Positions 103 through 33,541 of a stretch of DNA of 33,541 nucleotides are shown piece after piece; the stretch's first letter is position 1, and each line of letters starts with the position of its first letter. Made by a program: the position numbers and the translations under genes. The stretch comes from Lophium mytilinum (lineage: Eukaryota): assembly GCA_010093605.1 (NCBI GenBank), contig MU004191.1, forward strand, positions 1-33,541. Reading direction: 5' to 3'. The notes beneath the pieces were generated by a model. The model ran no database searches and was not told the DNA's origin. It was given only the letters and a program-made list of their open reading frames with translations.

Positions 103-120
103 GTGCTAGCGGGCGACCAA

Positions 121-530
121 TAGTACAGTATAGAAACATCGAGTAAAATTTCGTTATGCGTACTATATACCTACTAGTAGGCGTATAGTATAGAAGTATC
201 TACTAAAATCCCTAAACACATACTATATACCTACTAGTAAGCGTATAGTATAGAAGTATCTACTAAAATCCCTAAATATATACTATATACCTACTATTAA
301 GCGTATAGTATAGAAATATTTAGTAAAATTTTATTAGGCGTACTATATATATTTATCTTAGTATATACTATAGAAATATTTATTAAGGCTTTATTAGGCG
401 TACCCTATACTTATATATTAGTATATAGTATAGAAATATTTCTATTAGTCTTATTAGGTATAATATATATCTATATACTAGTATATAGTATAAAATACTT
501 CTTTAAATTCTATTAAGTATATATCTATTT
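121..530. repeat. Subtelomeric tandem array, 60-bp period, ~7 degenerate copies
   Basis: Successive 60-nt lines from 121 to 481 align without gaps (gYRTATAGTATAGAARYAT...TACTATATAC). Each unit has an internal inverted repeat, GTATA(TA)GTA...TACTATATAC. Confidence 0.9.
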
Positions 531-570
531 TAATATATATTATAGAAATATTTTAAATTATAGTATAGTA

Positions 571-693
571 TTCTTACTAGAAGGCTTTTTATAGAGATTC
601 TTTTAATTATAAATTTATATATCTTTTTTATATATATATATTATACTAATATTTTTTATAGGGCCTTTATAGAAAGCCTTTCTATAGTAACCC
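571..693. repeat. Dispersed palindrome copies 1-2
   Basis: 579-589 agaaggctttt (degenerate); 661-693 gggcctttatagaaag-c-ctttctatagtaaccc with a perfect 9-bp stem at 668-686. Confidence 0.75.
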
Positions 694-829
694 TTATATT
701 ACTATAGAAGTAATTATACTTTCTATTTACTATACTTCTAATATACTTCCCCTACTATAACCTAAATTAAGTAAGTATAAATAAGTTTCTATTATATATC
801 TCTCTATACTTCTAATAAGAATAATAGTT

Positions 830-3720
830 CTTATCCCCCTTTCTTATCTCTACCTCCCTCTTCCCCTTCTCTAATACCTTTTCTAACACCCCCTTTCTCC
901 TCTTTAATACTTCTTCTAACTCTATTACTATTAACTGCGCATACTTCTTTCTTACTACCTTCTTTCTAACTATATACCTTACTATTACTACTATTCTATT
1001 CTCCCCGCCTACTCTACTTTCTAGAAATAAACTACTTACTATAGATAGCCCCGGCGCTAGTATACTTAGCGCTGCCTACTAATACTCCGGCTATAGTAGC
1101 CCTAGCTTACTTACTAGTACTAGCACCTACGCTACTATACTACCTAGTAGCTATACTATAGCGTTCTTAGAACTCTCTACTATCTTCTACTACTTTTTTA
1201 TAGATGCAGGCTTATATATAGCGGGTAGCTATCTCTATATATAGCTAGAGTACCGCCTCTCTTACTATAGCTATATAAGCTACTTTCTTTAATAGGTAGA
1301 GTATAGCGCAGCCGCTAAAAAGGGCGTTCTCTAGATAGTATAAGGCTAGTAATAGCTTAGCAGATAAGTAGGTGCTAGTTTTAAACTTAGTAAAGGTTAG
1401 AACGGGGATTTTAGAGGCTTAATAGAATTCTATAAGAATACTAGTAAAGTTTTTCTAGGGTTCCTTAGAGGTAGTAGTAGTAGAAGTTAGAGTTAGAGTA
1501 TATTTTTTAGTTTTACTAGGGGTAGAGACTATACCTAAGGCTTTAAGAGAGAAGAGGAGAATAAGACTAAGAGTAGAGGCGGCTTCTTTAGCTTCTTTCT
1601 TAGAGGTAAAGGGGCTAGTAGTAGTAAGAAAGTAGAGAGAGCTAGCGGCGTAAAGGGTTAAAGTATAGTTCTAGAAGAGTAGAAAGGTATTACTATTAAA
1701 TAAAAAGATAGGTTAGAGGATAGTAAGAGCCTAGTAGCGCTAGATAAAAAGCTAGGTATTTACTAATAAGTATATAGAGATAGGGATAGATTAGAGAGTA
1801 GATTAGGCTTAGGCTTTAGCGGCGGTAACGGCGGCTTTATACTACTTCTTAAACTTATTAATACTAAGAAGGTTTTATAGTATACTTAGGGTACCTAAAA
1901 TAGAGCCTCTACGTATCTAATCTATTAATAGCGGGGTGGAGTTCTAACTACTAAGAGGAGCTATAACCTCTATCTTTCTTTTCTTCTTAAAGCTAGAAAG
2001 CAGTGTAGTAATTAAGCTTAGTATAAAGAAAGAATAAGAATAATTATTACTATTTATGCTAGTATATATATAAGGTTAAAGGCTAGCCTAAGAAGACTAA
2101 GGTAGGGTGCTAGTTTAATCTATATAAGCTAGAGTAGCTGCAGCTACTCTACTAGAAGTTATTCTTTAGCGCTTAGATAGAAGAAACTCTATATTTATGC
2201 GTAGCGGGCTAAGTTTATAAGAGGTAAAGTATATTACAGCTTATAGTTATATAATAGAGCTAGAGCCCGTTTTAATTTCTACCCCTTAGATAATCTGCTA
2301 AACTTTATACTCTTTACTATCTATTAGTAAATTTAAGCTAAAGTATAAAAGTCTTATTATAGTGTAATAACCTTTATATAAGAAGGCGGCGTATTAGATA
2401 ATTTCTAGTTAGCCTTTTAATAATTCGCATTGTAGTAGATAATACTGGCGTAGTAACTATACCTTAGAGTAGCTTCCTTTCTATAATATCCGCAATTTTA
2501 GGGCTTATAAGTTAGTAACGCAGTAGTAGTAGTAATAGAAGATAAATCTTCGGGTTTTACTATAGTAGTAAAGGGTAAACTAGTGCTATTACTAGGGGTT
2601 AGGTCTAGAGGCTCTACTATAGTAGAAGAAGATAAGACTAATAGTAGAAGAGTAGAGATAAAGCTATTAAAAAAGAAAATAAAAGTAAGGTAAAGTAAAA
2701 AAGTAAAGCCTATTAGATAATTTCCGCGTAGGCGGTATAGAGGGCTAGGGTGTAGTTCTAGAAGAGTAGAAACGCGTTACTATTAAAGGAGAAGATGGGT
2801 TAAAAGATAGTAAGGGCCTAGCAGCGCTAGATAAAGAGTTAAATGTTTACTAATAAGCGCGTAGAGATAGAAATAGGTTAAGACGCTGCTACTTCTATCT
2901 AAGGTTTAGATTTAGAAGTAGATTAGGCCCTACTACTTCTACTCCCTAGCTATAGCCTTAAACCTTATTTATATAGCTCTTACCTCCTTCTCTTCTATAT
3001 TAATCTATAAGCGTAAAAGCTTCTTATTTTTAAAATTATCCTTAAAAAACTTATAGTATCCGGGCTACTTATAAGGCTAGGCTTAATTTTAATACTAGGC
3101 TTAATCTTTATATTAACTTTATCGGCTAGTTTAGGCTTAATATTAATATTAGACTTAGAAGGTAGAGCACTGTCTCTAGAGGCTTAGAATAGGGGGTTAG
3201 CATAGTTATAGAGAGTTTAAGACTTAGTTATAGTAGGCTGCATATTAAGAGTAGTATTAGTAGGCGTGCCTAGGCTATTACTAAAGAGGGAACCTCTATT
3301 TTAATTCTAGATAGTTATAAAAAGTGCTTCTCTCTAGGTATAGATGCAGGTAGGGTTAGTAGTATTCTCTATAGTAAGCGGTTTAGTTATATAGGGTTAG
3401 TCTATATTAGCTAGCTTAAAAGTTATTTTAGAAATAAATAATAAAGACTCCTCTCTAGTATTTTATATAGCAAGATCCGCGGCATTACTAGGTATATTAG
3501 GGTTAAGAAGAGGGTTCTAAGTAATAGTACCTAAGCCTATTAGTGTGCCTATTATAGCGGTGCTATTCTTAGTATACTACTCTTCTAAGTTAGTTATATA
3601 AGTATTTCTATAGCCTACTAGCTTTAAAACTTTATATACTATTAAACTATCTCTCTAAAGTACTTTAAATGTAATTAAGAGTCTCTTCTATACTAGTTCT
3701 AGCTATTAGTTTACCTACAG
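830..3720 (-). pseudogene. RIP-degraded ORF relic(s) of unknown function
   Basis: Codon-like composition on the minus strand, with stops mostly TAA/TAG attributable to RIP and a Glu/Gly/Lys-rich tail near 830-960. No recognisable domain; number of genes and boundaries uncertain. Confidence 0.35.
1654..2883. repeat. ~140-bp direct repeat, two copies (1654-1795 and 2741-2883)
   Basis: Both copies read GTTCTAGAAGAGTAGAAA...TTACTATTAAA...GATAGTAAGRGCCTAGYAGCGCTAGATAAA...TTTACTAATAAG; mismatches are mostly transitions. Confidence 0.85.
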
Positions 3721-4444
3721 CTATAGTATAGAGAGGAATAAGCTAAAGAAGTAAGAAAAGAGAGGAAGAGTAAATTAGGCGGGCGCTAAAGCAACGCAGG
3801 GTATAGTTATATAAACTATATATTATAGGGACCTACTAGTTCCGCCTAAGATAAAATATATATATAGTATAGTAATAAAATAAAACTCTTAGAGCTGCTA
3901 TTTATATATAGTATATAGAGTTAACCTCTAAAGGTTAATTATAAGTATAGGTATAATATAAGAGGTTAGTATATAATATACTAAGATTAATAGAAACTAG
4001 CATATTAAACCTTTTTCTAACTATAATCTACCCCTTATAGTATAGTAGCAGCCTATATATAATACTATATATAAGTCTTAATTAGTATACTATATATATT
4101 CTTTCTAGAGTATTCTAGTAGATATTTATAAAATAAGAAGCGGCCCAACCTAATATAGAGACGGCTGCAACCCTAAACTAGGCTAAAGTATATAAAATAT
4201 AGCCCGGTATACTAAGGTTAACGCGCAGTAGTATAGCAACTCTAAACGCTAAGGATAATATTTAGCAGGGGTAGATATATCTACATCTACCTAATACGTA
4301 TATTTTAATAGAGCAGTTAGCTTCTTCTCTTACTACGCCTAATACTCTATTTAGGCGCGAGGTTATAAATACTACTCTAGATTTAGTTGTAAGGAGGAAG
4401 CTTATATAGCTAAAGCGCTTATTAAGATAGCTATAAGAATAGAA

Positions 4445-4635
4445 TATTAGGGCTTAAGGTTAGAACATTAGATTAAATAGTATTAATATTAATAAAAGAT
4501 AAATATAAGAGAGAAAGAGGTTTCTAGGACGGACGTTGTAATAACCTAAAGGGCGGAGTAATATTTACCTATTCTATAGAGCCTCTATTACGTAACCTCT
4601 AGTTACGTGTTATACGTAATTATATAGCTATAACA
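4445..4635 (-). repeat. 3' LTR of element 1
   Basis: TATTAGGG...CTATAACA (TG...CA ends, one RIP-altered); colinear with 12821-13011. Confidence 0.95.
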
Positions 4636-4650
4636 TGTCTCCCCCCTCTA
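4636..4650 (-). other. Polypurine tract of element 1
   Basis: Minus strand tagaggggggagaca immediately before the 3' LTR start TGTTA. Confidence 0.85.
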
Positions 4651-5169
4651 AAGAAGCCCCCTAATTAAAGCCTTTATAAGAGAGAGTTCTTTCTATACTA
4701 GAGTATCTGTAACCACTTAAATATCTATTAAATAAAGTGCCTAATTATGTTACAACTTAAGTAAATAATAGAAATAAATTAATTTTGTAGAGGATCGCTT
4801 ATCCTTCCTATTTTTCATGCAGCCTTCCGCAGCCTTACTATTTAGTATAGTGTCTAACTAACTTAAATAGTCTACTAGTGTTACTATATATAGTATTACT
4901 ATATATAGTACTATCTTATTATTTATTTAAACTAGGGCCGGCTATAATAGAGCTATAAGGAGCCGTATAGCCTTTATAGCTACTAGCCTACTACTAGGTA
5001 CTTATAATAATCTGCGCTATTATATTGCATTTAATTATTGCGCATATCTATAGTTAGGCCTCCTTAATAAATTAATTTAACCGCTAGTCTAGTAATTAAG
5101 TTATATAGCTTCTGCAGTATTAGTTATATAGAGGTCTATAGCGGTAAGAATAGTAGCTAAGGTTAGTTT

Positions 5170-8100
5170 CTAGTCTAATAGTGGTATAAATAATAGGTAA
5201 GGTTCTAGCTTCTTAGAGTAGTGGTAGTGGAAGTCTACTATAAGGTATAAATAACTATTAGTATAATTATAGTTATTCTATTAGGGTTTATTATCCTATC
5301 TAATAAACTTAATTTTATATTGCATTATACCCCTTTTACCTATAGTAGGGTTAAGTTATCTTCTATTAAGATAGTAGTTAATAACCTCTTTAGTATTACC
5401 TTTTTAATACATTAGTATTATCTATATAGGTAGAGGTTTAGGATTACGCTATCCTTTTATAGGGACTGCGTTAGCTAGATAGAGTAGCTAAGAATAGAAG
5501 ATAGGGTGCAGGTTTTCTATGCCCTTAGGTAGCTTAAGTTTATATGCGCTGCTGTTTTTATAGCTTTCTAGAACTTTAAAGGGGCCCAGCTTCTTAAAGT
5601 TAAGCTTTCTATTTAGGTAGTTTATTTTAATAAACCGTCTATTAAGTATAACTTAATTGCCTGGGTAATATATATATGCTAGTTATTATCCTGCGTTAGT
5701 ATACTTCTTTTACTTAGCTTAGGCCCATTTAATCTCTATGCAGAGAAATGCGCAAAGCTTATCTATTCTAGTAATAAATTTATCTGCAAGCTTTATAAGA
5801 CAGATTATTAGCGCGTTTACATTATCGGGTAGTTGTGCGGCTAGTGTGGTGCCTACGCTAGAAATATAGCCCTTAGTAGCTATAAATAGCGCTACTTCTA
5901 TAGAGGCGTTCTTTAATAAGTTGGCCTTAAATTTAGTAATAGTAAGGAAGTTATACTAGTTATCTTGCTAGTAGTTAATATATGCCCTAAGGTATTACTT
6001 TAAGCCTATATTAGCGACTTCTATTTATCTATCTATCTTAGAATAGAAAGCTATAGAAAGCTTTAGTTTTATTCTAATGCATTTATATAGGTGGAACTAG
6101 AAAGTTAATATAAATTATAATCCGCAATTAGATATAATAGACTCTAGGTATCCTTTAGTGCGCTAGACCCATTCTAGAAAGGCTTATGCTACTTCTTTAG
6201 CCTCCGTTATTACTATTAGAATAAACTTACGCATCTTAGAAAGTCTATTAACTACTACTATAACGTATTAGTAGTCTCGTCCGGCTTATATATATTTAGG
6301 TAGTAGGCTAATAAAGTTAACTATAAGGTTAGTCTAATATTATTTAGAAATTAGTAGTAGTTTAAGAAAACCTTACTTTACCTCTTATGCATGCTTAATG
6401 TAATTACATAGTTAGCAGGCCTTAATATATTAGTTAACGTTAGAGGTTATTTATAGCTAGAAATAGTATATTAAGACACGGTTATAAGTAGACGTAGTTC
6501 CACCGTAACCAACTAGCGGAGGCTTGTGTAGGCTTTTAATAATAGCTAATTAGAGTTTCTCTTTTATAGGAATATATAAGCGGTCCTTTTAAATAAAAAT
6601 AAGGCTGTTATAGATTGTGCAATTATAGAGTTTAAGCTTAACGCCATAATTTTTAACTATATTAGTAGGCAGGCGGCGTAGCTTAGCTCTAATAGCGTCT
6701 TTAATAGCGTTAGTAATAGTATTATTAGTAAGGGCCTCTTATATATAATCTATAATATCTTACTCTACGGCACTATTAGTAGAGTTATTCTATAACTCCC
6801 CCTGCCTACCTAGTAGCTTCTATAGTTTATTATTAAGGTTACTCTAAGACTCCCCTTAATTAAGTTCTACTTTACTAAGGTTATATATTATTGCTGCAAG
6901 GGAGACTATATTATAAGTTATACTGTTAGTTATAATATAAGCTAATTTAATAGCGTAACGCATTTCTAGTTTAAGATTATAGTTCTTTAAGATAGTTTAT
7001 TACTAAATCTTATAGCGCTTATTGTTTTTATCTAGTATATTACCTAGGCGCCTAGTTAGTAGATTAGCTTTACTATTATCCTTGCCTGGCCTATATATAA
7101 TCCGGAAGTTAAACTTAGAGAGGAATTTAGCCTATCTAGCCTATTATTAGTTAAGCTGCTTTATCTCTATAAAGTATTATAGGGTCCGGTAGTCTAAAAG
7201 GACTTTAATAGAATTACTATACCTATAGCTAGTAAGTTCTATGCACTATTCTTTAAAGGCGTAGATAATTGCTAGGAGTTCTTTATTATAGATTTAATAA
7301 TTAAGTTAGGCTGCGCTTATTTAGTAAGATATAAATGTAATAGGGCGGAGGACTCTATTAGCTTATATTTAAGATAGTATAGCGGCCGTAACGGTATTAG
7401 ATGCATTGCATTCTACCTACGTCTCTAGGTCTAGATTAAAATAAGCTATCTAAGGAGTATTAATAAACGCTTATTTTATTTATTTAAATAAAAAGTCTTT
7501 AGAGCTACCCTTCTACTATAGAAAGGTAAACTACTTATAGACCTTAGCCCTAGTAAGTCTTATAAGGGGTCCTGTAATGTTAGAATAGGTAATAATAAAT
7601 CGCCGGTAGAAATTATAGAAGCCTAGAAAAGCTTATATATTATAGAGGTTCTATAGTTATAGCTAGTTAACTACTATTTTAACTTTAGCTAGATCTATTT
7701 TAAGGCCGTTAACGCTAATAATAACGCCTAGATATTTAACTTCCTATTTATAGAATTTACACTTAGTAATATTAAGGAAGAGGCCGGCCTTGCAGAGTTA
7801 CTAGAGAATCTTCTTAATGTGGCCTATATGTTCCTCCAACGTCTTACTAAAAATAAGAATATTATTAAGATAGGCCGTGCAGAAGTTATTAAGGTATTTA
7901 AGTAGAACATTATTAATAAAGGCCTAGAAGGTCGCCGGAGCGTTATATAGGCTAAAAGGTAAGATAGTAAATTTAAATAGGCTATATCTTATAAGAAAAG
8001 CCGTGTATTTCTTATCTTCTTCTCGCATTCTAATAGCGTTGAAAGCGGCTATAACGTTGAACTTTATATAATACCTAGCGTATTTTAATAGTATAAGTGT

Positions 8101-9390
8101 ATCTTTTATAGCCGGCGGGATATTATAAGCTTTAATTATAATAGTATTAAGGCCTTAATAGTCTATATAAATGCAAAGGCCTCCCCCTAGTTTATAGATA
8201 ATAATAATAGGAGCAGCGTATTAACTATTACTTTTTCTAATATATTCTTTGCTATATATCTTGTTAATAAACGTTTTAATAACTAGCGTTTCGTCTTATA
8301 AGAGCCTATAGACTTTTTAGGCTAGGGCCTTAGTTTCTAGCTTAATATTAATATAGTAGTTAATATTAGTGCCGTCCTTTACTTTATGCCGGGGTAGAAG
8401 CTTATTAGCTTTCTTTAGGTTCTATATATTAAGGAAGCTATAGTATTCTATAGGTACTAGTACTTTAAGTTTATTACAAGTTATTAGCTTGCGTTCTATC
8501 TTCTTAAAGAACTTTTATTAGTCGTCTTTTAACATTGCGTAGAGGCTAATAGCTGCCAGGTTATTAGTAAAGTTAGCTAGACCTATAACCTTGTTAGGTT
8601 TATACGGGCGTCTATTAGCGCGCGCTTAGTCTTCCGCTTTTTTATTAGCGAGCGCTAGTTTAAAGTATTTAGGCTAGATGTAAATAGTATTCTCTTCTAG
8701 TAACTATTATAAATTATATAAGTACTTATTGCTAGACACGGCGTTAATATTAAGCGCTTTAAAGGCTGTAAGCTAGGCATTAAGTTTCTACTAGAATAGG
8801 CGTTTACTAGTGCAGGCTATAGGGTTCTTTAACTAAATATAGACAGGTTTATAGTTAACTAGGCATTAAGAATAGTAGTAGTCTAAATCTAACTATATTA
8901 TTTAGGTACTAAACTTTATATAAGCGTTGTGTATTACAAGCTAGCTTATACTAAGAATAATATTATAGCCCTTAAGGTTATAGATTAGAGCCTAGAACTT
9001 ATTATAGTGGCCTTTAATCTGCATAGTAACTTTAGCTGCCTTATTAATAACTAACGTAGAACTATTTAGCAGCTTAATGTTACGTAGAGTAGCTTTATAA
9101 ATATTAAGCTTATACTATTTTATAAAGCTTATAGAGATAAATATAAAGCCGCCGCATCTAGAGTCTATAAGGATAGTTAATTTAACTATTCTAGTTAAAG
9201 TAATAATCTTATAGTTGAAGTCTATTTACTTACTAGAAAGAGAAGTAAGTCTAATAGCGCATGCGGAGAGCTTAATATTAGGTAGTTTTAGAGGAGGTAG
9301 CTTAAGCTCTTAAATATGTGCAAGAACTTAAGCTAGTGTATCTTCTAACTATCTCTAACAACAACTTTTATTAGAGATTAAGCGTTTTCT
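5170..9390 (-). pseudogene. pol: pol relic of element 1 (protease, RT, RNase H, integrase, chromodomain)
   Basis: Protease LIDS[R<G]C (~9155-9172). RT LPFSLYNAPATF (~7927-7963) and YLNN<YLDD (7861-7872). RNase H VECNASN<VECDASD (~7395-7418) and IYNKELLAII. Integrase H..H..C..C (~6400-6530), core D-D-E region ~5940-6340, KKLGPF (~5578-5595). Chromodomain-like QYKIKFI[G][W]D (~5290-5325). Many RIP stops. Confidence 0.93.
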
Positions 9391-11700
9391 AAGTAGTTAG
9401 AATAGACAGCTTTATTATTATTATCTTAGTCTTAGTTATCCTTATATTTATACTTATATTAGTACTCCTAATTACTACTATAGTTAAACGCGTTAAGTTC
9501 TATACTATTAATACTAGTAGTAGTAAGGCGCTTATCGCGCTAAGCCTCTAATATAGTCTTTCTAGCTATAGTACATTTAGGGTTACTAGCTTAGTAGTTC
9601 TTCTTAAAGTAGCTAAAGTAATATCCTTTCTTACTAAGGCGCAGGCGGACGTGCGGTGGAACGCTTAGCAGCGGGATAGTAGTAGTCTTCTTAACTATAA
9701 TGCAATTATTAGTCTTAGTAATAAACTACTTGCGTTGGGCGCAGTTTAAATCTTAATAGTTATCCTGCGTATATGCGTTATTTAAGCGGCGTGCTAAGAT
9801 TTATACTACTAGAAGCTTATTCTTAAGTTGCTTTTTGCGCTAAATATAATATTAGTCTTTATATAGGATATTATCTTTTACCTAATACTATATAGGTAGG
9901 TTAAAGTTAATATAGGTAAATAGATCTATACGCAGTATTTCCTTAAGGTAGTAGTAATAAGTTGCAAGGCTGTTATTAATCTTACTATACTTTAGCCCGT
10001 TAAGAACAACGTTAAGATGTTATAGAAAGTTAGACGTCTTCTTATTAGAACGCTATTTTATGCCCTAGCTATTAAGCTAATTAAGAAGGTAATTATAACG
10101 CATAGTATTACTCTCTTAGAATATAGCATCTAGGTCCTAGGTAAGTTCCTTAAGTAAATAATACGGGTTAGTAGATATAAGAAGTCCTTAATCTTCTATA
10201 ACTTTATATGCGCGCCCCTTATAATAACTAATAGCGAGCTGGATTTAAGTTATAGTAGTAGGGTAAGTCTACTAGTCTACTTAGACTAAGTAGATTAGGT
10301 AGTTCTTCTAGGCTGCATATACTATAGCTCTTAATTTAAAGTTCTATAGGTATGTATATTTAGGGCAAGGGCCCTATTATTATCTATATTAAGAATAGAT
10401 AGGTCTATATACCTATAGCTAAGTAAAGCTACCTAGTTAGCTTAGGTTTAGGTTATCTCTACCTCTACCTCCACCTCCTCCTATAGTAAAGTATTAGCCT
10501 AGAACGCAATTATATTAGAAATTATCTAGATTTAGAGTATATAGTCCTGTTAGTAGGGAAGGAGAGTAATTATCTATAGAATTATAGTTAGATAGATATC
10601 TATATAGGTCTATATATATATTACTAGGTTATTCTATAGGTAGGTTATAATAAAGTTAGGCTTTAAGCTAAGTAATTTAGTCTAAGGCTTATTAGTGTGT
10701 AATACCTAGCTTATTAAGCTAAGCTATCTAAGCTTAGAACTAGGCGTGCTTCTTATTCCACCTGCGACGCACTTATACTAAGTTTATCTTCATAGCTTCT
10801 AGTGTATTACTAAGGGTGCAAACTTATATGCAAAGCTTAGAGAGTTTACTATTAGTAAGTAAATATTTCTTATTTAGCTCTTTAATAGTAGTATTAGTAG
10901 CATCTTATTCTTAGGTAGTAATATTTATTCTATACTTATAGTTATTACTATCTTAGTAAGCTAATATAATATAGTTCCACTACTATTTAGGTATAAGCTA
11001 GACGTCTTTAATAAGGTCTTATAGACCTTATAGTTTATATTACTAGTAAACGCTATCTCTATAGCGCATCTTAAAGATAGAGCTATTAGCGCGCTGCGCA
11101 ATTATAAGATATAACTGCTAGTAATCCTCTACGCGTATTGTATTATAGTGCCTACTACTCCATTCTATACCTGCTGCTTACTAGGCTAGGTTAGGAGTAT
11201 TAAGTCCTGTAATAGATTTAACGCGGGTAGATTAGTATTATAATAGAGATATATTAGGGGAGGAAATACTATAAATAGGTAGTATTCTTAGATATTTAGA
11301 GTTGCGCAACTAAAGGTTAAGTTTAGAAATAGTATTATAATATGCCGTAGCTTTAGGGGTGTTAATAGTAACGCCTTAATAGGCTATCTTAAGCTAATTA
11401 ACTTTATTATCTGCGTTATTACTAAACTATTGTTCCTCCTCTTATTAGTTATATTTATCGGCTAAATTAAAGTTAGAGGAAGAATCCTTACTATAGGCGG
11501 CAGTTATATTATTAAGGCCGGTAGTAGTGTCCTTAAGTTCTTTAGGTAAATTAAAGTCGCCCGGTACATAGCTGCTAATGCGGGAGAGTAGGAGTATAGT
11601 TTCCTCTACTATAGTTACTACTAGAGGGGCTAGGGTAATTAGTAGGGGCTTACCTATAGTACTAAACTTAGTCTAATAATATTGCAGGTTAGCGGGTATT
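9378..11700 (-). pseudogene. gag: gag relic of element 1 (5' end approximate)
   Basis: RIPped zinc knuckle [C]FS[C]FKKN[H]..SNPKC at ~9572-9622; the frame ends TTA GAA AAC GCT TAA (9392-9378); position between the 5' LTR and protease. Confidence 0.7.
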
Positions 11701-12321
11701 ACTAAAGAAACTAGTCTAATAGATAGAACTAATTAAGAAGTAGCTGCTAGTGTCTATAACTAGGACTAAGTTGCGCCTTAAAAGGGTAGAATTAATAGTT
11801 AAATAAGAGGAGGCTATAGGCTATAATTAATTTATATTATATTATTATTATTATCTTCTATAAGAAGGTGCTATAGATTTAGGGCGCCTTCTTAACGTAA
11901 TATAATGCTAATGCGGCGGGGGTTAATAGGAATACTATTAGCGTCGCTAAATAGGCGTCTAGCAGTAGAGCATCTACTAGAGACTAAGTTGCTAAACTAT
12001 AGGGCTTTAGCGCGGTTAAAAGTATAGCGGTTAGGGTTAGCTATATAAGAAGGTAAAAAAGTTAGTATAGAAGAAAGAAAACTTAAAGAGGCAAGGTATT
12101 AAATTTATATGCAAGCCGTTAATAAATTTTAGTTATTTACTATAAGCACCGGCGGCGTAGAAGGCTTAAGAAACTAGCGCTAGTTATAGTTAGTAGCGGC
12201 GTTATTAGAGGAGCTATAGTAAATAATAAAGTTAGGTAGTCTATTTATAAAACGGGTAGTATATAGAAAATAGGTAGTCTATAGATATTTATTCTATAAT
12301 ACTAAGTATGCGCGTAGGCTA

Positions 12322-23600: not shown

Positions 23601-25044
23601 TTTTATGTTTATTACCTTCTTTAATGCGTAGAGCGTTAAAGGCGCTAATAATATCTAGCTTAGTGTAGTATCTAGCTTTAGCGAGTAAGGCTAATGTATT
23701 CTTAACTAAGAGCGGCATGTTACAGCTCTTAATTATAATATTATTTAGTCCTCTATAGTCTATATAGATATGTAGGCCTCTACTAGGTTTCTTAATAATA
23801 AGAGTTAGGGCGGTAAAGAATAATAAGCTTAGCCAAATAAAGCCTTTAGATTGCATTTTATTAATAAATACTTTAACTACGGCGGCTTAATCTTATAAAA
23901 GACTGTAGACCTTTTATACTAGTAGTTTACTATTAGGCTTAATATTAATTGCGTGGTCTATTTTGCGGTAAGGGGGCAGTATATTTACTGCTTGTGGGTT
24001 CTATGCATTATAGAGGTAGTGGAGCTAATCTAGTAGTAGCTATTTAATCTTATTATTAGTAATAGGTGGTCTATTTATTTTATTAAAGAATTTCCTGTAG
24101 TTAGCGGGGTTAATTATAAAGATATTAGATATAAATGCAGCTTATTTCTAAGCTAGGGAGTTATTTAGCTTATTAAGTCTATAGAGAGCTAGATTATTAG
24201 CTATAGTATAAGTATCTTTATCCTCTTAAGTATTAAGGTAGTAAAGCTTATTAAAGTCTTTATTTTATAGTTAGATAATAGCGTCTTCCTTACCTTTACA
24301 GGTAAGCTTATAATATTTAGCAAGGAAGTTATTAGCTTTAGCTAGGTTAAGGCTAAGCTTGCGGTAATAGTTAATAATTTCGTGTAGGGCACTATTATAT
24401 AGCTTCTTTTCTTTATAGGTAATATATTAGTTACGGCTATTACTCTAAATATATTAACAGCCGTCTATATATAGATAGTGGCTAGCGTAGTAGTTAGAGT
24501 TAAAATCTAGTGCGTGCTCTTTCTATATAGGACTAGGCTTATAGTATTTAAACTAGGGTATACTAAGAATAATATTATAGCTCTAAAGGTTAGTAACGTA
24601 GCACTATAGGTATTTAATATAGGCTCTAAGTAATAGCGTAATTTAAGCCTTATGCGTAACTATAAGCATTAACTAGCTATTAGTAAGGCGTAGTAGTATT
24701 AGCTTTATAATGGGGACTATTATAAGCTTATAGGCTTTTATAAATATTTATAATATAAAAGCTAGATATAAGCAGCCTATATCTATTAAGTACCTACTAT
24801 TAATAATACCGGAGGTAATAGTATAAATTCTGCATTTAAAATTAAGCTATTTTTCTTATGTAACTTTCTTAGAGGAATTAACAGCGCAGGTAGAGAGCTA
24901 GAGTTTATCTAGCTTAGGGGGTGGTTGCTTTAGTTTGCAAATGTAGGCAACTAATGCACTTAGATAAATACCTGCTAGACTCTAACCGTAACTATAGTTA
25001 GAGCCTAGGGAAAATCTATACTATTTAAGTCTAAAGAGTTTCCC
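20640..25044 (-). pseudogene. pol: pol relic of element 2 (protease, RT, RNase H, integrase, chromodomain)
   Basis: Protease LID[T]GC (~24772-24790). RT fragment = supplied ORF 23521-23856 (YIDYRGLN, KLDIISAFNALRI); YIDN<YVDD at 23458-23469. RNase H KCNSLDY<ECDSSDY (~22993-23014). Integrase HEPKLA[G][H] (~22005-22027), ETDG[Q]T (~21520-21537), LG[P]Y (~21082-21094). Chromodomain ~20700-20910 (SRI...GLLQYKI..T[G]YPN[W]NAKPKW). Confidence 0.94.
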
Positions 25045-27300
25045 TATGCGGCGTTATTATTACTACTATTATTATTAACAGCGGCTAGCGCGTTACTAAG
25101 CTTAATATTAGATGCGAAATTATCTATATAGTAAACTATAGAGAGCTTTAAATTAAGCTCTTTCTAGAAGCGGGCAAGGCGTTATTAGACTATCTCTTTA
25201 GAGGGAGGGGCGTTCTTTATATAGGGATAGTTGCGGTCTAATACGCGGTGTCCTATCTTAAGGTAGTTATAGTAGATATCTTTATCTTATTTATTAAGCA
25301 CTTTAGTTACTACAGGAGGGAGATAAATGCGGCGGGTATTACTATTATAGTCTTAGCAGCGTAAGCTATTATCTATAATAGGGCGTAATAAATACGCTTT
25401 AGGGTTACGGTTAAAGTTCTAGAAGCTATAATTAGACTTCTTACTAAATAGCTTATTAGTATATGCGGATCCATTACTATTATTTTAGAATAGGCTGTTA
25501 GTGCGTTATTATTTACGGGCGCGCTTATGTTTACTGGTAAGAAAGAACACTATACAGTTAACGGCGGTAACTAGTTCTATCTAGAATATATAGTTGTTAG
25601 CAGCGCTAAAAACCTAACTTTTAAGTTTAGGGGTAATAAGGCGCTTAAGCTATCCTTTCTAATTAATAAAGTCCATTTCCTTATCGGAGTCTATTAATAT
25701 TATTTCCTGGAACCGGAGGAGGAAGATAGGCCATTTCTTGTTATATTTTATAAATGCCTATTAGCTGTAAAGCTTATTATTTATAGCTATAGCTTTGTCC
25801 TTAATTATAAAATAGGGGTTTATTATTTTAAATATTTTTTTAATTATTTTAAAGTTGTTACTTATAGGGCGGTCCTATTAAGTACGGTTGCATATAACGC
25901 TTTTAGCGAATCTAATATAGTAGGATTTAATGTATTTAAGCTTAGCTTACTTATTATAGAAATCTTAAGGTTTATTCTAGAAGATAGTATAGGCGTGCAC
26001 TTTCTATAATTTATATTTAGATTAGTTATCTTATTCTTTAAACTTCTATAGGTCGCGGAACTTAGTATATAGCTAGTGTAGGCTAGCTATAAGTTAGGCG
26101 TTTAGATTGTATAAAAAGTTAGGCTAGGTAAAATAATTGCAATTAGGAGGATTATTGCTGTTGCCTTTATTAGATAGGTAGCTATAGTTACCGCGCTTAG
26201 CTGCGTTATCTTATTAAGAGCGCGCTTAGGGTTATTACTATATAGCTTATTAGTACTTCTTTTTATACTCTATACCCTAAGCGCGAAAGGTGTCGCGCTG
26301 CTATTAGTATTAGTCGCGGTAAAAAGTAACTTTAGCTACTTTAGTAGTAAGGCCTTTAACCTTAATATAGAGTTTAGCGTTAAAGATAGTCTAAGTGTTA
26401 GTTTTCTTGCGCTTATCTTCTAGCTACTTAGTAAGACTGTCGCGTTTATTAGCAAAGTTCTTAGCGTTAGTATGCATCTTAGCTACTTAATAATAGAGCT
26501 TAGCGGCTTAGTTTTTAAGGTTAGTAATTATAGTACTATTTTATGCGCCTTATTATTCTTAAAGTTATGTAATTTTATTATCTTTCTATTAAATAGCTAC
26601 TACTATATTCCTAACATCTTTATGCAACTTACTAAGTTCTCGGCGGCAGTTAAGTAGTGCGGCGTAAATACTAATATATTTATCTTAAGCTATATCGCAA
26701 AGCTCTTCTATATTATTAATAGTAATATTAATAGATTACCTATTACAGGCTTAGTTAATAATAAAGACTATGCCGTTATCTTTATTATCTATAAGGAGGG
26801 ACTATCAACGGTTAGGTAGTTAGCCGCTAGTTCTAGCGGAACTAGCGCCTGCGTTACTAGCGCCTGCGTTAGCTATATTAGGCTGTTCTTAGGTAGGGTA
26901 GATATTTAGAATTGCAATAGTATTAGTAGTAGAGATAATAACCTAGTCCTCTATAGTAATTAGAATTTAGAAGAAGAATAGAGTAGTTAGGTTAACTAGG
27001 GGTTTAGTAAATTAGACGGCATAAGGTATAGATATTTTAGCGAATAACTTAAAGTCTTCTTTATCTTTACCTTTACCTTTACCTTCTTATGCATAGGCGT
27101 TATTATTAGTATCCTACTTAGTAGAGTTAGTAAGGTTGTACTAGACTTAGCTCCGTGGTAGATTAGTACTAAATTAATTTAGTAGAAGGTAAATATCTAG
27201 TCCTAGATTACTAAATTTCTTAGTACGTGCAGCGAGAGCTTCCGGGGTTACAGTTAGTTAGTGTTGTAATACTCCTCCGCCGCCTATCTTATAGGCAGCT
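25020..27300 (-). pseudogene. gag: gag relic of element 2 (5' end approximate)
   Basis: RIPped zinc knuckle [C]YN[C]LKIGH......[C]P at ~25224-25275; GGGAAAC slippery site at 25038-25044 in the same frame. Confidence 0.7.
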
Positions 27301-27696
27301 TCCTTTTCTTAGTAATTAAGCTTATATACTTTCTAAGAGTTAAATGTAAGAGTAGATTAAGTAGCTTATAAGCTAGAAGGGAGAGTAGAAGTAGTAATAA
27401 CTAGACGCTTATTAGCTTTACCGCCGGGAGGTAAACCTATAAGCTGCGCGCTAGGTATAGCTATACTATATAGAGTTAGAGCTTTTCTACTATAGCTTAG
27501 TATAGCTAGTCTTAGGGGTATTATTTATATCTTTACTAGTAAGTATTAGTAGACTATAGAAGGAAAGGTTAGTATAAGGTAGAGGGTATAGGTTCTCTAT
27601 AAAAGCTTAGAAGTAGGCGTGCTTTCTAGAGTAGCTAGTACTATTCTTAGCGGCTGCCTTTAATTAGTAAATAAAAATAGGATAACTACGCATAGA

Positions 27697-27892
27697 CTAG
27701 TTAGTTGCGCGTAATAGTAGTAAGTAGGTATATAGGGCCTGCGCGCTAGCCTATTACTAATAGGGTATATATAGTTCTTACTCTATTATTAGAAAGTAAC
27801 TGCGCTTATATTAGTTAGTTACGCGTAATAGTAAGCAGGTTTATAGGGCCTGCGCGCTAACTATAGTAGGCGGGGTATATAGAGTCCTTACT
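27697..27892. repeat. Two ~85-bp direct repeats in the 5' leader of element 2
   Basis: TTAGTTRCGCGTAATAGTA...TATAGGGCCTGCGCGCTA...GGGTATATA at ~27697-27782 and ~27812-27892. Confidence 0.8.
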
Positions 27893-28034
27893 ATAAGATT
27901 ATAGAACCTTCTTTTAAGTCTCCCTATATTAATATAGAGGTTGTTAGGTTTATATATTAAAATTAGGCCTATTAAAATAGCTATTTAGTTAATTATAGGG
28001 TTGCTAATATAGATAGATAGATAAAAAGAGGGTA

Positions 28035-28054
28035 CTTCTAGAAACTTCTAGAAG
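28035..28054. promoter_or_regulatory. Heat-shock-element-like array (4 alternating pentamers) in the leader of element 2
   Basis: cTTCt aGAAa cTTCt aGAAg matches alternating nTTCn/nGAAn; function not demonstrated. Confidence 0.4.
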
Positions 28055-28063
28055 CTAGAAGGG

Positions 28064-28074
28064 TAGTTACTTTA
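28064..28074 (-). other. Self-priming primer-binding site of element 2
   Basis: + strand tagttacttta (28064-28074) is the exact 11-nt reverse complement of taaagtaacta inside the LTR (28129-28139) and directly abuts the LTR. Confidence 0.82.
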
Positions 28075-28294
28075 TATTATAGTGTAATAGCGGATTATAA
28101 GAGAAGACCTAATATTAGTATATATAGATAAAGTAACTATAAGAGAGAGAGAAGGGCGCGGAGCGCCGGCTAAAAGGTAGGCGAGGCTGGCGCTAAGACT
28201 AGTTATGTAACGGTAATTACGTGCTAGAGAGCACGTAACGCCGTTATATATATTAGGAACGTATTGTAATAGGGGTTACATTACAGCTATAATA
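28075..28294 (-). repeat. 5' LTR of element 2
   Basis: 220 bp; differs from 20011-20230 by transitions plus one transversion seen (aagcct/aagact), no indels. Confidence 0.95.
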
Positions 28295-28461
28295 ACGGGT
28301 ATAAATATATTAGTATTTTACTTAATTTTGCTAATATATAAATATTTATAGTTAATCTATAATACTATACTATATATTACCTAGTTCTAGTAATATAGTA
28401 CTACACTAAGATAGGTTAATAGAATATCGCGCGTTATTATATAACTATTTACCTATAGTAT

Positions 28462-28625
28462 AAGAGTCTTGCTAGAAAGCCTTTCTACTAGGGCCCTTTA
28501 CTACTTATATTAAGTACGCCTATTATTACCTCTCTTCTTATATATATTACTACTATATATCTACTAGATAAGTATTTACGTACTATATAAGAGCCTAGCT
28601 AGAAGCCTTTCTACTAACGCTCTTT
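28462..28625. repeat. Dispersed palindrome copies 13-14
   Basis: 28462-28501 aagagtcttgctagaaag-c-ctttctactagggccctttac; 28589-28625 aagagcctagctagaag-c-ctttctactaacgctcttt. Confidence 0.8.
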
Positions 28626-28699
28626 ATATCTTATACTAATTACTTTACTACCTTTCTTATTAATAATTCTTATTTATAACGCCGCCCCTACTAGTCTAC

Positions 28700-31600
28700 C
28701 TATTAATACTTAAATCTATATGCTCCTTAGAACTCTTCTACTTAAGCCTTATTCTTCTAGGCCTCTTACTCTAAGTCCCCCGAGTTCTCTATTTCTAAGC
28801 TGTAGTTACCTAAACTCTCTTTATACTTATACTCTTTATCTAATAACTAACTACTTATATCCCCCTCTTGCTCCTTCTATATTGCTAAATAATTCTAGAA
28901 TTCTTTAATTATTAGAATTCTGCCTAAATAAGCCCTTAGGCTATTTAGTATATAGTACTTAAACCTAAGCTAGATATATTTTAGATTAACTTAACCCCTA
29001 GGGCCTATAATATTATCCTCTATTATTATTATCTTTAACTTTCCTAGGCTTTTCTAGGTTATATTCTATACTTTCTTTGCAACTACGTCTATACTAAGGT
29101 TAACTGCCCCCCCTTAAGCCTATTCTTTAATATATTAGCTTAGTTAGGCTACCTTATAGTAGTAGCTATTTAGTAGTTATATATAGATCTACTATATATT
29201 TATAATTATATCTCTTCCCCTAATATTATCTTATATATCTTTAGAGTTATTTTATTTAGCTTAACGCGTAGTTAAAATTTTATTATTATTGTATCTTAGA
29301 AGAACCTAGAGTAATAAGGCGGCTCTTACTTATAGATTATTAAGGAATTATTCTACCGTTTTTAGTAACGCTTTATTTCTAATTATTGCATTTAATCTTT
29401 ATAATTTTATGTAGAAGGGACTATTATTCTATTTTTAAGTTTCTATAGCTAGATCTATAATATTAAATAGCAGCTAGACTTAATTAATCTAGCGTCTAGT
29501 TAAGTGCCTTAGATAATTTATATTACTATTTCTAGCTATATTCCGCATATAGGCGTAGCTTACTATAAGTTCTAACTTTCTATATAGCTTTATAAGTATA
29601 TTAGGATAAAGTATAACTATAGATCTATTTAGAATACTTTTAAGAAATTAGTTATATAGTTCTTTACTCTTCTATTATATCTTAGTATTTCTATCTTCTT
29701 CTATATACTATCTGCTTAGAAGCTTATATATATTAGTATAGTATACCTTAATAATAAGCGCAGCTGCCTTACCTATCTATAGCGGTGCTAATTGCTAATC
29801 TTTTTATACTTTAGTCCTATTTTTGCGTTAAATAGCTAGCGTGTACTATACTATAATGCTATACTATAGATACTGCATCTCTATATCCTCTCTAGTAAGA
29901 AATACCTAGATCTAAGCTTTAGTAAATATAGCTTAGAATTAATTCCTAAGGCCGGCTTATAGTTAATTAACACCTTAAGAGCTAAGTTATAGGGGCGTTA
30001 TTATCTAATCTAAGTACTCTAACTTTAGCTAAGCTATGCTATACTTCTTAAGGGAGTCTAATAACCTAAGGCTATATAAGGTTATAGGATTCTAGAGGTC
30101 TTTTTAATTTATCTACTCTTTTTTCTATAGTATAGATAATTAAGTAGGATTACTATATCTAGTAGTAATTTACGCAAGGCGGATATAAAGAGATGCTAAA
30201 TAACTATTTACTAGCTATTTATCTAGTATTGCTATATACCTAGCATTACGCCCGGGGGTAACCTAAAGAGATAGTACCTAGAAAAGAAATACCTAGTAAT
30301 TAAGGTTTATAATAGTAAAGGTATTAACTTCTTCTATAGAAAGAACCTAGTAGGGGTAATAAGGCTTACTACTATTATCTAGCCTATTCTTTATAGTAAA
30401 TTTAGGACTTGCGCTTTCTTTAAGTTACTTAAGTATAGTAAGAAGTACTTAGAACTCGGTTTAAACCCTATAGAATAAGTATCTATCTCTCCAGAGTATA
30501 GTATAGTAGCGTTAGAGAATAGTAGTAAGACTATTCTAAAGCTATTTTCTTTTTAATAATTCTCTAGAGCTACCTGCCGCTTTAAACTACTGCTTAATTA
30601 TTTTAGTTAAGACTGCAAGAGCTTCTAGTTAAGTATTATAAAAGGGTGTAATATTCTTAATAGGTAACTTAAGTATAATCTTATTACTATTATAGATTTT
30701 ATTATATACTATACTACTAATACGGCTATAGTTACCTGCTTAGAGCTCTACTATTAAAGATAACGCGCCCTAGGTAAGATAGTAGGGGTATAATATTATA
30801 TAAATCTTTTCTTTTCTACTATTATAGAAGTAAGTGGCCTAGTAGTTATTATAGCTAGTTTTACATAGAAGGGTAACCCCGGTATCTAGCTAATTAGTAG
30901 TTAGAACATTTTTATATCTATAGTTAATCTATATTCCCTTATCTAGTATATTAATTAGGTTTTTATTAAAAGTAGTAGTTAAAGTATATAGTAGCTAATC
31001 CCTGCTTTAAATTATACTTAAGAACTTATATACTATTTTTAGATTATAATCTAAGACTACTAGGAATACTTCTTTAAATAAATCTTTAGGTATAGTGTCT
31101 ATTCCTATAAAGTTTTCTGCGTTATAAAGAACTTAGTTCTAGAATTCTTAGAGTTAATACTATAGAATTATATACTTAGTATTAATATAAGAGTCTCTAG
31201 ATAATATTATATATTTTTCTTTCTTAATGCTTGCTTTACCCTATATAATATTAAAACTGTGTAGTATATACTACTACTTATTAGGTATTAGAGTATGCTT
31301 TACTATAGGTAAGATAATATTATTAAGCTAAGCTGCTTATATTATATCTAGTAGATGTAAAGTATTACCCTTCTACTTATTTAGTATTGGTATCTAGGGG
31401 AAAAATATATAAGTTTTAAATTAATGCTTATATCTATACTTTATATAAAGCTGCTTTATTATATAGAGCTTATAGCCGCATATTATAATATATTAGTTTT
31501 AAGTAATACTTTAAAGAAAGGATAGTTATAGAGATAGTAAGAAGTATAAATTATAGGCCGCTAAAGTAGAGATGCTAATAATAACGCTATTAATATTATA

Positions 31601-33150
31601 CACTTACCGGATTTTAATCTCTTTATTTACTATAAAGCTAGCTTTAGACCTTATAAAACTAAGCCTTAGAGTTTCTATATTACTAGTTTCTCCGCTTAAT
31701 ATTAATTTCCATGGGATATTATTAAAGTTATTAGAATTATTCTCTCTCTATAATAGCTCTAGTTAGCTTATTAAATAGAAGGCTGCATTAGCTATAATAG
31801 GCTCTTATTAGGAGGGAAGGTTCTAAGCTAGAAGAAAGCTAGTAACTTAGCTAAGGGATCTACTCTAAGGAACTATTATATAGTTACTTGCTATATTATA
31901 ATATTAGCTACTATATTATCTAAATAGAAAGAGTTAAGATATATAGTAAGTATACTAGACTTCTAACGCTAATTAGATTATACTTACTATATATAGAGTA
32001 TTTACTAATAGATTATTATACCTATATATATTAGCTTTATATAAACTATAGAGCTTATAATACTTACCTATTAAAGTCTATCTTATCTATAACTTTATCT
32101 ATAATCTTGCTATTACCTTTACTATTTAAGGCTATATTATCTACCCTACTACCTTAATTCTCTAGCATAACTTTATTAAGTAAACCCGGTAATTTATCTA
32201 TAGTATCTTACTATCCTTGCGTATATATACCTTCTCTACCCTCTTTAACTCTATTATCTAATACCTTATCTATATCTATACCTGCTTCTACCTTATTCTT
32301 AAGTTAGATAAATTCCTCTTCTATAACCTTAGTTACTAGCGTTAGGCGGAGAGATAATAAGGCAGCGTACTACTCTATTTAAACCTAACTATTATTATGC
32401 GCTAGTTGCATAAACCGACTTATATTAGCTAGTATTTTCTTCTTATCTATTTATTCCGCAGCGTCTATTCTAGAGAGTACTTCTACGGCCTTATTTTATT
32501 GCGCTAAGAATAATTCTGCTATAATCTCTTTATTAGTTATTTACGCAAGTACGTAGAGCAGTAATATAGTAATAAGGGCTAGTATTTAGTATTATATTAT
32601 TAGTTCTAGTTATATAGAAGTAGAAGCCGCTATAGTTTATTAAGCGCGTAAACTTACGCGTAGTATTATAGCTATCTATAGAGTATTCTAGAGAGTAAGA
32701 ATAGTATATACGCCTGTATATATATATAGTATAGCTATAGGTTTAAGAAACACTTTATAGAGATAGCGTATAGCGGGTAGAACCTAGCCCGGAGCTCTAT
32801 TATTATTATTTACGGCTTACTAAGATATCCCTACGCTAGAAGGTAGTAATAGAGAGGGTAACACCTCTCTAGTATCTAGAGGTAGTAGTAACGCAGGTAT
32901 ATAAGGAGACAACGCGGAAGATATAGATAATAGTAACTCTAATACTGCCTCTTCTACTTCTTTATCTACTTAGGCTACTTCTTTATTTACTTTACTTTCT
33001 TTAGCTGCTTCTTCTTCTCCTTTAACTACTGCTTTCTTAATAGTCTATATAATAGCATGCTTACTACTATTACTTTAATCTTGCTCTATAGCTTCTATTA
33101 ATTCTATATTACTTTAAATTTTAGGTATATATTAGGCCGCTTTTAACTTA
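28700..33150 (-). pseudogene. Large uncharacterised protein gene relic (RIP-inactivated, >1000 codons; ends approximate)
   Basis: One frame gives protein-like text at both 31621 and 30592 and on to ~29400: PW..ILSG, Y[D]I[D]S, YIFFP, YP..LT..A, [GG]IVYNKIYNS, TPFYN..LEALAV. An acidic N-terminal part (EEEAA..., ~32950-33030) is in another frame; a 46-nt GTAAGT..CTAAT..TAG intron (32067-32022) joins the two frames. Confidence 0.65.
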
Positions 33151-33235
33151 CTAGAGTATATACTACTACTAGTAGACTGCTAGGTATAAGAAAGTTATAT
33201 TAGTTAAGTAGGTTAAGAGGTTAGAGAAGTAAGAG

Positions 33236-33452
33236 AATAAGTACTACTATAAGTAGCCCGCCCTAGAGTAGAATATTAGGTAGGTTTAGTAGATAGAGAA
33301 GGAGTAGTAGAATAAATACTACTATAGGTAGACCGCTATAGAGAAGTATATTATATAGGTTGCGTAGGTTAAATAGATAGAGAAGGAATAGTAGAATAGA
33401 TACTACTATAAGTAGACTACTGCGGAGAAGTATATTATATAGATTAAGTAGA
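33236..33452. repeat. Degenerate tandem repeat (~84-bp period, 2 full copies + 1 partial)
   Basis: TAGATAGAGAAGGARTAGTAGAATARATACTACTATARGTAGAC...GAGAAGTATATTATATAG at 33290 and 33374; partial copy from ~33236. Confidence 0.8.
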
Positions 33453-33541
33453 GGTAGAAGGTAATAATTCTTCTATTAAGACGGGTTCTACTTAAGTTTA
33501 TTAGAACTTAACTGTAAATACTAGAAGATTATAAAAGATAT

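Follow-up and report, generated by a model that had tools for sequence, protein, structure and literature searches.

The forward strand of Lophium mytilinum contig MU004191.1 opens on a telomere and runs into a heavily decayed block that a first-pass annotation took for a multicopy unit with an SNF2-type, not RecQ-type, helicase. The question this locus raises is whether such a block is a telomere-specific element, a large mobile element or a decayed repeat that happens to reach the chromosome end. The window referred to below is the whole stretch that was analysed, 33,541 nt from the telomeric end of the contig; its features are collected in table 1.

Layout of the window and its retroelements

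The telomeric start and the 60-bp array reported previously were both recovered. Two Ty3/gypsy retrotransposons were inserted later into the remaining DNA, termed here the backbone. Both have the LTRs, 5-bp target duplication, polypurine tract and RT-RNaseH-integrase order of this group, with RVT_1, RNase H, Integrase_H2C2 and SH3_Tf2-1 matches in both interiors on the minus strand. The LTR pairs are 93% identical in element 1 (4444-4636/12820-13012) and 88% identical in element 2 (20011-20230/28075-28294), values that become 100% over 194 columns and 99.5% over 221 columns at the purine/pyrimidine level. This coding is unchanged by RIP, and we used it for LTR pairs, target duplications and coding frames, leaving out self-BLAST matches below about 85% identity at that level as uncalibrated. 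The target duplications, TAGAA/TAAAA for element 1 (4440-4444 / 13012-13016) and ATAGG/ACGGG for element 2 (20006-20010 / 28295-28299), differ by transitions only. For element 1, one source-sample contig passes from 4444 to 13020 with three intervening letters, a precise empty site. Excision of both elements leaves 4341 + 6998 + 5247 = 16586 nt, close to the 16.7 kb first estimated for removal at the target duplications; these three parts are segment A (telomere-proximal), segment B (with the SNF2 relic) and segment C (including ORF-X). The repeat block extends past the window end at 33541.

Just three stop-free frames of at least 100 aa are present in the whole window. Segment A shows coding-like purine/pyrimidine codon periodicity of 1.15-1.28, the level of the pol and SNF2 relics. 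This segment also holds a 150-nt internal duplication (1645-1793 / 2732-2880; 98% identical at the purine/pyrimidine level) and is matched by GC-rich contigs of run X3 at 1576-1837 and 3122-3356; it gave no Pfam or PDB match. The large unknown ORF of segment C stood in part: codon periodicity is frame-consistent over the whole of ORF-X, but no open frame of at least 100 aa lies there, and 104 of its 1099 codons are stops. On this periodicity ORF-X is a putative coding relic; Pfam gave no match to it, and PDB matches were at chance level (NUG1, E 0.32; gp27, E 0.93). Searching all six frames of the backbone against Pfam, with stops read as X, yielded 0 families and thus neither a transposase nor a recombinase, as the annotation had it, although absences of this kind weigh little because even the SNF2 relic escapes these scans. 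A search of Rfam likewise gave 0 families. Repeat and self-comparison of the window showed no terminal repeats of the backbone unit, which runs off the window.

Table 1. Positions of features in the window, with the evidence for each.
Feature	Position	Strand	Evidence or remark
Telomere repeat (AACCCT)n	1-101	.	16.8 units, 98% matches
Degenerate 60-bp tandem array, ~7 units	about 123-544	.	period 60, several overlapping rows, 78-93% matches
Segment A coding-like relics	about 600-2400 and 2700-3900	.	purine/pyrimidine codon periodicity
Palindrome copy adjoining 60-bp array	658-699	.	
Ty3/gypsy LTR retrotransposon 1, inserted in backbone	4445-13011	-	LTRs, domains, target duplication, empty site
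Four palindrome copies downstream of SNF2 relic	13897, 14806, 15027, 15265 (13897-15307)	.	
Short coding-like stretch among these palindromes	14100-14700	.	codon periodicity
Intron-bearing SNF2-family ATPase gene relic	about 15640-19500	-	PDB, phmmer and profile matches
SNF2 relic C-lobe	16720-15662	-	profile E 1.3e-49
GT-AG intron, 94 nt (GTAAGT ... CTAAT ... TAG)	16722-16815	-	contains one palindrome copy
SNF2 relic N-lobe	17549-16827	-	profile E 7.5e-22
SNF2 relic motif I	near 17735-17700	-	
Palindrome pair upstream of SNF2 relic	19386-19564	.	
Ty3/gypsy LTR retrotransposon 2, same family as element 1	20011-28294	-	LTRs, domains, target duplication
Second palindrome pair	28457-28627	.	
Putative coding relic ORF-X, ~1100 codons	28800-32100	.	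frame-consistent purine/pyrimidine codon periodicity
Further coding-like stretch, frame other than ORF-X	32100-33541	.	codon periodicity
84-bp tandem repeat	33204-33447	.	inside the 32100-33541 stretch

The SNF2-family relic, its intron and the palindromes

Pfam returned 0 families for the SNF2 frames, word-indexed protein searches with the N-lobe and the C-lobe found nothing, and a PDB search with the N-lobe gave no match. The C-lobe frame, in the PDB, matched Rad54 (E 9.6e-5) as well as Rad5 and Snf2, four of the five matches at E<=10 being SNF2 proteins. Exhaustive phmmer searching yielded 136 relatives at E<=1e-3 (best 6.1e-38), and the SNF2 domain PF00176 is present in 32 of the 33 that were scanned. 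A family profile built from 59 of the phmmer relatives covers the C-lobe over profile positions 322-642 and matches one locus only in the window; a profile of this kind, made from exhaustive-search matches, can thus recover genes that are invisible to Pfam. Among full-length relatives, 21 of 21 match the C-lobe and seven match the N-lobe too. Judged by sequence, the gene is SNF2-type, its nearest relatives and PDB matches being of that type and none RecQ-type, which bears out both the class and the minus-strand placement given in the first-pass annotation. Its motif strings fared less evenly: QAIAR is literally present, but the other six of the seven searched are absent as letters and are mental de-RIP readings, which agree with the SNF2 family alignment. 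From periodicity in the same frame, an N-terminal extension probably reaches about 19500.

The gene is dead. The two reading frames used hold 61 and 18 stop codons, 34 stops fall among the 594 codons aligned to the family, and there is no intact ORF. The orphan fungal family to which it belongs is uncharacterised, and partial gene models are common in it: 78 of the 136 relatives are shorter than 560 aa. An atlas search with one relative (P0018) gave generic SNF2 clusters only. With another (P0001), a related-locus search found nothing, and a word-indexed search returned one bacterial-looking protein (P0137), whose 39 intron-less metagenome loci are uninformative on fungal synteny.

Removal of the GT-AG intron between the lobes brings profile positions 88-642 into one frame at 252.3 bits, compared with 162.8 and 71.2 bits for the unspliced relic. 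Since this canonical intron was kept, the gene was copied as DNA and not through spliced RNA. The intron contains one copy of a 41-nt palindrome that occurs at 13 sites in the window, every one of them in the backbone, where palindromes had been described. The best-preserved copy (19386-19431) has a 20-bp stem and folds at -27.1 kcal/mol (z -8.4), with none of 200 shuffles folding as well; it is the one copy in eight that folds far better than shuffles. A second candidate for a palindrome within an intron gained only 3-7 bits, against the one copy in the validated intron. In introner-like elements, reportedly described in Dothideomycetes by van der Burgt et al. in 2012, a short repeat that folds into a stable hairpin likewise sits within a GT-AG intron of canonical form; unlike them, most of the 13 palindromes in the window fall where no intron can be demonstrated, and all are confined to a single repeat unit.

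RIP and copy number in the source sample

The claim that the whole backbone is RIP-mutated was confirmed by dinucleotide indices, with TpA/ApT at a RIP-like 1.77-2.0 and (CpA+TpG)/(ApC+GpT) at 0.17-0.34 in all five segments. In the SNF2 alignment, 107 non-identical codons return to the consensus of the family only when C>T/G>A changes are reversed, compared with 69 and 60 for transversion controls (p 0.005 and 3e-4). The window is a closely analysed case of a repeat block destroyed by RIP, in which RIP-invariant purine/pyrimidine coding makes the coding frames, the target duplications and the identity of the LTRs readable again.

Contigs from two runs of one source sample were compared with positions 110-20000 at >=80% identity. 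They contributed 4386 and 4589 pieces, and single sites within the SNF2 relic show a variant letter in as many as 8-11 distinct contigs. Differences between copies are overwhelmingly transitions (531-956 per type, versus 12-89 per transversion type), and another copy has segments A and B contiguous without LTR element 1. The source genome therefore contains many copies of the region 110-20000 that have diverged by transitions, and these, together with the precise empty site, establish that the unit was multicopy, as the annotation had proposed. Source-sample contigs can in this way yield paralogous empty sites for the reading of RIP-destroyed regions.

That annotation had also named a finding that would overturn its reading, a single-copy backbone with RIP leaking out of the adjacent LTR elements; on this explanation the genes would be single-copy host genes damaged by such leakage. 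Leakage of RIP into flanking DNA is an established phenomenon, but here it is the backbone that is the more strongly mutated, with a (CpA+TpG)/(ApC+GpT) index of 0.17-0.24 against 0.31-0.34 for the LTR elements, and the source-sample contigs contradict a single-copy state through the many diverged copies and the empty-site copy. We regard this explanation as highly improbable.

Described relatives and competing explanations

The closest described thing appears to be X3X3R8 of Stagonospora (Parastagonospora) nodorum SN15, likened here by description: a 26-kb, RIP-affected multicopy repeat which, in the part of the report available, carries three Rad5/SNF2-like helicase genes, a Rad6-like ubiquitin-conjugating enzyme, uncharacterised ORFs and pseudogene frames (Hane & Oliver 2010, PMC3017866). 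X3X3R8 and the backbone share a large multi-gene repeat in many RIP-mutated copies, an SNF2/Rad5-like helicase and broken frames. They differ in that X3X3R8 has three helicases and a Rad6-like enzyme whereas the backbone has one SNF2 relic, with no match to UQ_con (ubiquitin-conjugating enzyme) in its six frames in a Pfam scan of low sensitivity; and telomere adjacency is not described for X3X3R8 in that part of the report, whereas the backbone adjoins the telomere. With such a repeat in print since 2010, calling the unit 'undescribed' was too strong (PMC3017866).

The position of the locus would suit an element of the telomere-linked helicase type that has an SNF2 ATPase instead of the RecQ-like helicase of TLH or Y' and that spread among chromosome ends by recombination before RIP. 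The present copy begins at the telomere with the 60-bp array, the helicase relic would lie approximately 7 kb from the telomere without LTR element 1, and a rough estimate of tens of copies would suit the number of chromosome ends. TLH genes (Magnaporthe, Ustilago, Fusarium, Zymoseptoria) and yeast Y' likewise place a helicase-type gene in a repeated telomere-adjacent block, often AT-rich or RIP-mutated like the backbone. Fungal TLH are reported as RecQ-like in the portions of the literature available, so an SNF2 version would be new; in place of their RecQ-type core, the relic has SNF2-type nearest relatives and PDB matches, and the relatives carry PF00176 and no RecQ-type domains. The abundance data point the other way. 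Summed contig depth in run X1, which is a sum over contigs and not a copy number, is 180-900 for segment A and 1650-3885 for the SNF2 segment. The SNF2 segment thus appears more abundant than the telomere-proximal one, which argues against a telomere-anchored unit, and in other copies of segment A the contigs run into gypsy sequence at 554, 2248 and 2658 instead of the array. We consider a telomere-linked element unlikely.

A large autonomous DNA element, either Starship-like or a big cut-and-paste transposon, is also rather doubtful. On this view the recombinase or transposase would be encoded by ORF-X or by a gene outside the window, with the SNF2 gene as accessory or cargo, which would be consistent with a multicopy unit of several genes, a frame-consistent relic of about 1100 codons and a repeat block that goes on past the window. 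Starships are likewise large multi-gene DNA units in Pezizomycotina; however, neither their captain tyrosine recombinase (DUF3435) nor element boundaries were found here, the former being sought in the six-frame Pfam scans to which the SNF2 relic is invisible. Those low-sensitivity scans yielded no domain of a recombinase or transposase, and the window showed no terminal repeats. The apparent copy number is high, and tens of copies are atypical for Starships. The parts of the Starship literature searched do not mention SNF2. AcademH was dropped as a candidate: in the available part of a secondary source, its helicases are DEAD plus Helicase_C, with SNF2_N among the non-TE domains.

More speculatively, the 41-nt palindromes might belong together with ORF-X and the SNF2 gene in a single, hitherto undescribed class of large fungal DNA element of high copy number, either mobile and SNF2-encoding or an SNF2 counterpart of the telomere-linked helicase elements, with introns colonised by a hairpin 'introner'; we hold this to be improbable too. 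Were the SNF2 repeat telomere-linked or mobile, it would bring a second helicase class to the biology of fungal chromosome ends, or else be a new element that carries genes.

On the explanation we favour, a large multicopy DNA repeat formerly included an ordinary, spliced nuclear gene coding for an SNF2-family ATPase of the orphan fungal family, and the backbone, with segment C as a putative part, is probably one of its copies, now dead and mutated by RIP. It belongs with decayed repeats of a broadly familiar kind; that it is a telomere-specific or a new type of element is at most a candidate reading. Copy number may have risen to something like tens, through repeated segmental duplication or through mobilisation by an enzyme that cannot be recognised in the window, and RIP would then have destroyed every reading frame. 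This copy would sit at a chromosome end because RIP-mutated repeat blocks reach the telomere, rather than as a telomere-specific element, and would now be AT-rich subtelomeric filler, most likely without coding function.

As a counterpoint, the present copy adjoins both the telomere and a minisatellite, the placement expected of a telomere-linked element.

Gypsy insertions, RIP and copy number

GC content is 25-37% along the whole window, and only three stop-free frames of at least 100 aa occur in the entire 33.5 kb. TpA/ApT is 1.77-2.0 in all five segments, while (CpA+TpG)/(ApC+GpT) is 0.17-0.24 in the backbone (the window minus its two LTR elements) versus 0.31-0.34 in the elements; extreme RIP indices in 5/5 segments thus bear out RIP across backbone and LTR elements alike. 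The anatomy first noted for this chromosome end, with telomere, 60-bp array, LTR elements, palindromes and SNF2 relic, also holds.

Coordinates of features in the window
Feature	Position	Detail
Telomere repeat AACCCT	1-101	16.8 units
Degenerate 60-bp tandem array	about 123-544	directly after telomere repeat
LTR element 1 (-)	4445-13011	
LTR pair, element 1	4444-4636/12820-13012	93% identical
LTR element 2 (-)	20011-28294	same gypsy family and orientation as element 1
LTR pair, element 2	20011-20230/28075-28294	88% identical
SNF2 relic (-)	15640-19500	
84-bp tandem repeat	33204-33447	about 2.8 units; right edge of window
41-nt palindrome, 13 sites (nhmmer)	658, 13897, 14806, 15027, 15265, 16760, 17587, 17694, 18373, 19386, 19521, 28457, 28586	

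Since RIP yields transitions only, the window was recoded as purine/pyrimidine, and in this coding the LTR pairs agree in 100% of 194 columns and 99.5% of 221 columns. The LTR pairs are 7% and 12% diverged, exclusively by transitions, so that this divergence reports RIP rather than age. Both interiors carry, on the minus strand, Pfam matches to RVT_1 (E 3.5e-20 and 7.6e-14), two RNase H models, Integrase_H2C2 and SH3_Tf2-1, and the domain order is that of Ty3/gypsy. The 5-bp flanks (TAGAA/TAAAA for element 1, ATAGG/ACGGG for element 2) differ solely by transitions, and in run X2 one contig passes from 4444 to 13020 across three intervening letters, a precise empty site for element 1 in a paralogous copy that is less mutated than the window at two positions. 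Removing both elements at these target-site duplications leaves 16586 nt, in line with the approximately 16.7 kb first proposed.

Contigs from two DNA runs of one sample were compared with 110-20000 (segments A and B and LTR element 1) at 80% identity or more, giving 4386 and 4589 pieces that range from at least 99% to below 90% identity. Their differences are mainly transitions (476-956 per type versus 12-89 per transversion type), and at the listed variant sites in the SNF2 relic the variant letter is carried by 3-11 distinct contigs. Together with the empty-site copy, these data confirm that the backbone was multicopy across segments A and B. Summed word depth in run X1 (180-900 in segment A, 2400-4850 in LTR element 1 and 1650-3885 in segment B; about 58-190 for single contigs) is not copy number; all that is taken from it is that copies are numerous and that the SNF2 segment is commoner than the telomere-proximal one. 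Further joints in the contigs, at 554, 2248 and 2658, connect A-like copies with gypsy sequence.

The SNF2 relic

Of seven motif strings sought literally for a minus-strand SNF2 helicase, only QAIAR is present in the window; the SNF2 identity itself stands on similarity searches and a family profile. An exhaustive phmmer search of 1.84 billion representatives yielded 136 proteins at E≤1e-3, of which 20 reach ≤1e-10, the best being P0001 (E 6.1e-38, 31% identity). A family profile was built from 59 proteins of at least 560 aa, 58 from this set plus P0137, a bacterial-looking protein from a separate search. It matches 17549-16827 (profile 88-316, E 7.5e-22) and, in a different minus frame, 16720-15662 (profile 322-642, E 1.3e-49), with no third match anywhere in the window. 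The C-lobe was matched singly by 21/21 full-length relatives and the N-lobe also by 7/21. Against solved structures, the C-lobe frame matched zebrafish Rad54 (E 9.6e-5), Rad5 and two Snf2 entries, the fifth match being a ribosomal protein (E 0.12), while the N-lobe frame matched none. SNF2-rel_dom was found in 32 of the 33 relatives scanned (16/17 and 16/16), supporting an SNF2-type rather than RecQ-like helicase. P0018, a relative with an intact gene, stands at the same distance from every characterized SNF2 subfamily (top match DDM1, E 1.7e-17), with no RING or HIRAN domain seen. P0137 was rejected as a member of the fungal family: the 39 metagenome loci related to it match continuously over about 2.9 kb, and this lack of interruption gives them a prokaryotic look.

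The two profile matches are separated by 106 nt that contain GTAAGT...CTAAT...TAG on the minus strand. With 94 nt (16815-16722) taken out, they fuse into a single in-frame match (252.3 bits over profile 88-642, E 1.8e-78), which indicates a normally spliced gene in a repeat that was copied at the DNA level. A further candidate intron past motif I gains just 3-7 bits. The purine-at-1/pyrimidine-at-3 score, a RIP-invariant coding signal, persists in the SNF2 frame to about 19500, suggesting that the protein was some 1250 residues long and had an N-terminal extension, which fits relatives of 900-1300 aa. Stops occupy 34 of 594 aligned codons. In columns where the window departs from the family consensus, reversing C>T/G>A alone restored 107 codons, versus 69 and 60 for two transversion controls altering the same letters (p 0.005 and 3e-4).

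Many relatives are partial gene models, as 78/136 are shorter than 560 aa. In the common models of about 580 aa (P0004, P0005, P0008, P0009, P0014, P0015 and P0024) the SNF2 match begins at residue 1-33 but at Pfam profile positions 57-98, and the absent domain starts could reflect gene-prediction errors at an unusual intron. Directly past motif I, the window has a palindrome and the candidate intron.

Other coding relics and relation to known repeats

The codon score is 1.15-1.28 in the pol genes and SNF2 relic, and as high in segment A at 600-2400 and 2700-3900. The 'large unknown ORF' of the first-pass annotation survives in part, as a frame-consistent signal at 28800-32100 that may lie on either strand, albeit lower (1.06-1.20) and with 9.5% stops versus 5-7% in known relics. 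It gave no Pfam match and no meaningful PDB similarity. No Pfam family was found in any of the six backbone frames, a weak absence because Pfam also misses the SNF2 relic (no match in three minus frames of 15000-18500). A 150-nt internal duplication (1645-1793/2732-2880) is 77-80% identical in letters and 98% as purine/pyrimidine, so its divergence is entirely of RIP type. Run X3, which carries a different organism label and may be RNA, has two contigs of high GC content, 1298 and 4261 nt long, that match 1576-1837 and 3122-3356 at below 90% identity. The differences are mainly window-A/contig-G, as though these contigs represented homologues of the segment A relics that had escaped mutation.

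Fungal telomere-linked helicases are described, in the portions of the literature retrieved, as RecQ-like, unlike the relic here. Those portions yielded no description of an SNF2-type subtelomeric helicase. By occurrence counts, SNF2 is absent from the 10 Starship papers listed. Its sole mention in the retrieved part of a subtelomere preprint concerns a supernumerary-chromosome gene rather than the subtelomeric helicase. A telomere-attached unit or giant element is a possible but less probable reading of these data. A closer precedent is X3X3R8 of S. nodorum, a 26-kb RIP-affected repeat whose content comprises three helicase genes of Rad5/SNF2-like type, a Rad6-like enzyme and uncharacterized ORFs (Hane & Oliver, PMC3017866), a name that the full-text search returned from this paper alone. 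The most economical reading is that the backbone is a decayed member of this known class of RIP-destroyed gene-bearing repeats.

Palindromes of the backbone

All 13 sites of the 41-nt palindrome, found with an nhmmer model of nine copies, lie in the backbone (binomial p 1e-4), and the 16.9 kb that the LTR elements occupy yield no site at E<0.01. The best copy forms a 20-bp stem (-27.1 kcal/mol) equalled by 0/200 shuffles; for two more, 1/200 and 4/200 shuffles fold as well, and for five others at least 14/200. One copy lies inside the validated intron and most lie outside demonstrable introns; an introner, a MITE and a unit-specific motif are all candidates. Two similar palindrome pairs (19386-19564 and 28457-28627, spacing 126-135 nt) flank LTR element 2, and with that element taken out, four copies come to lie upstream of the SNF2 relic in a stretch of roughly 1 kb.
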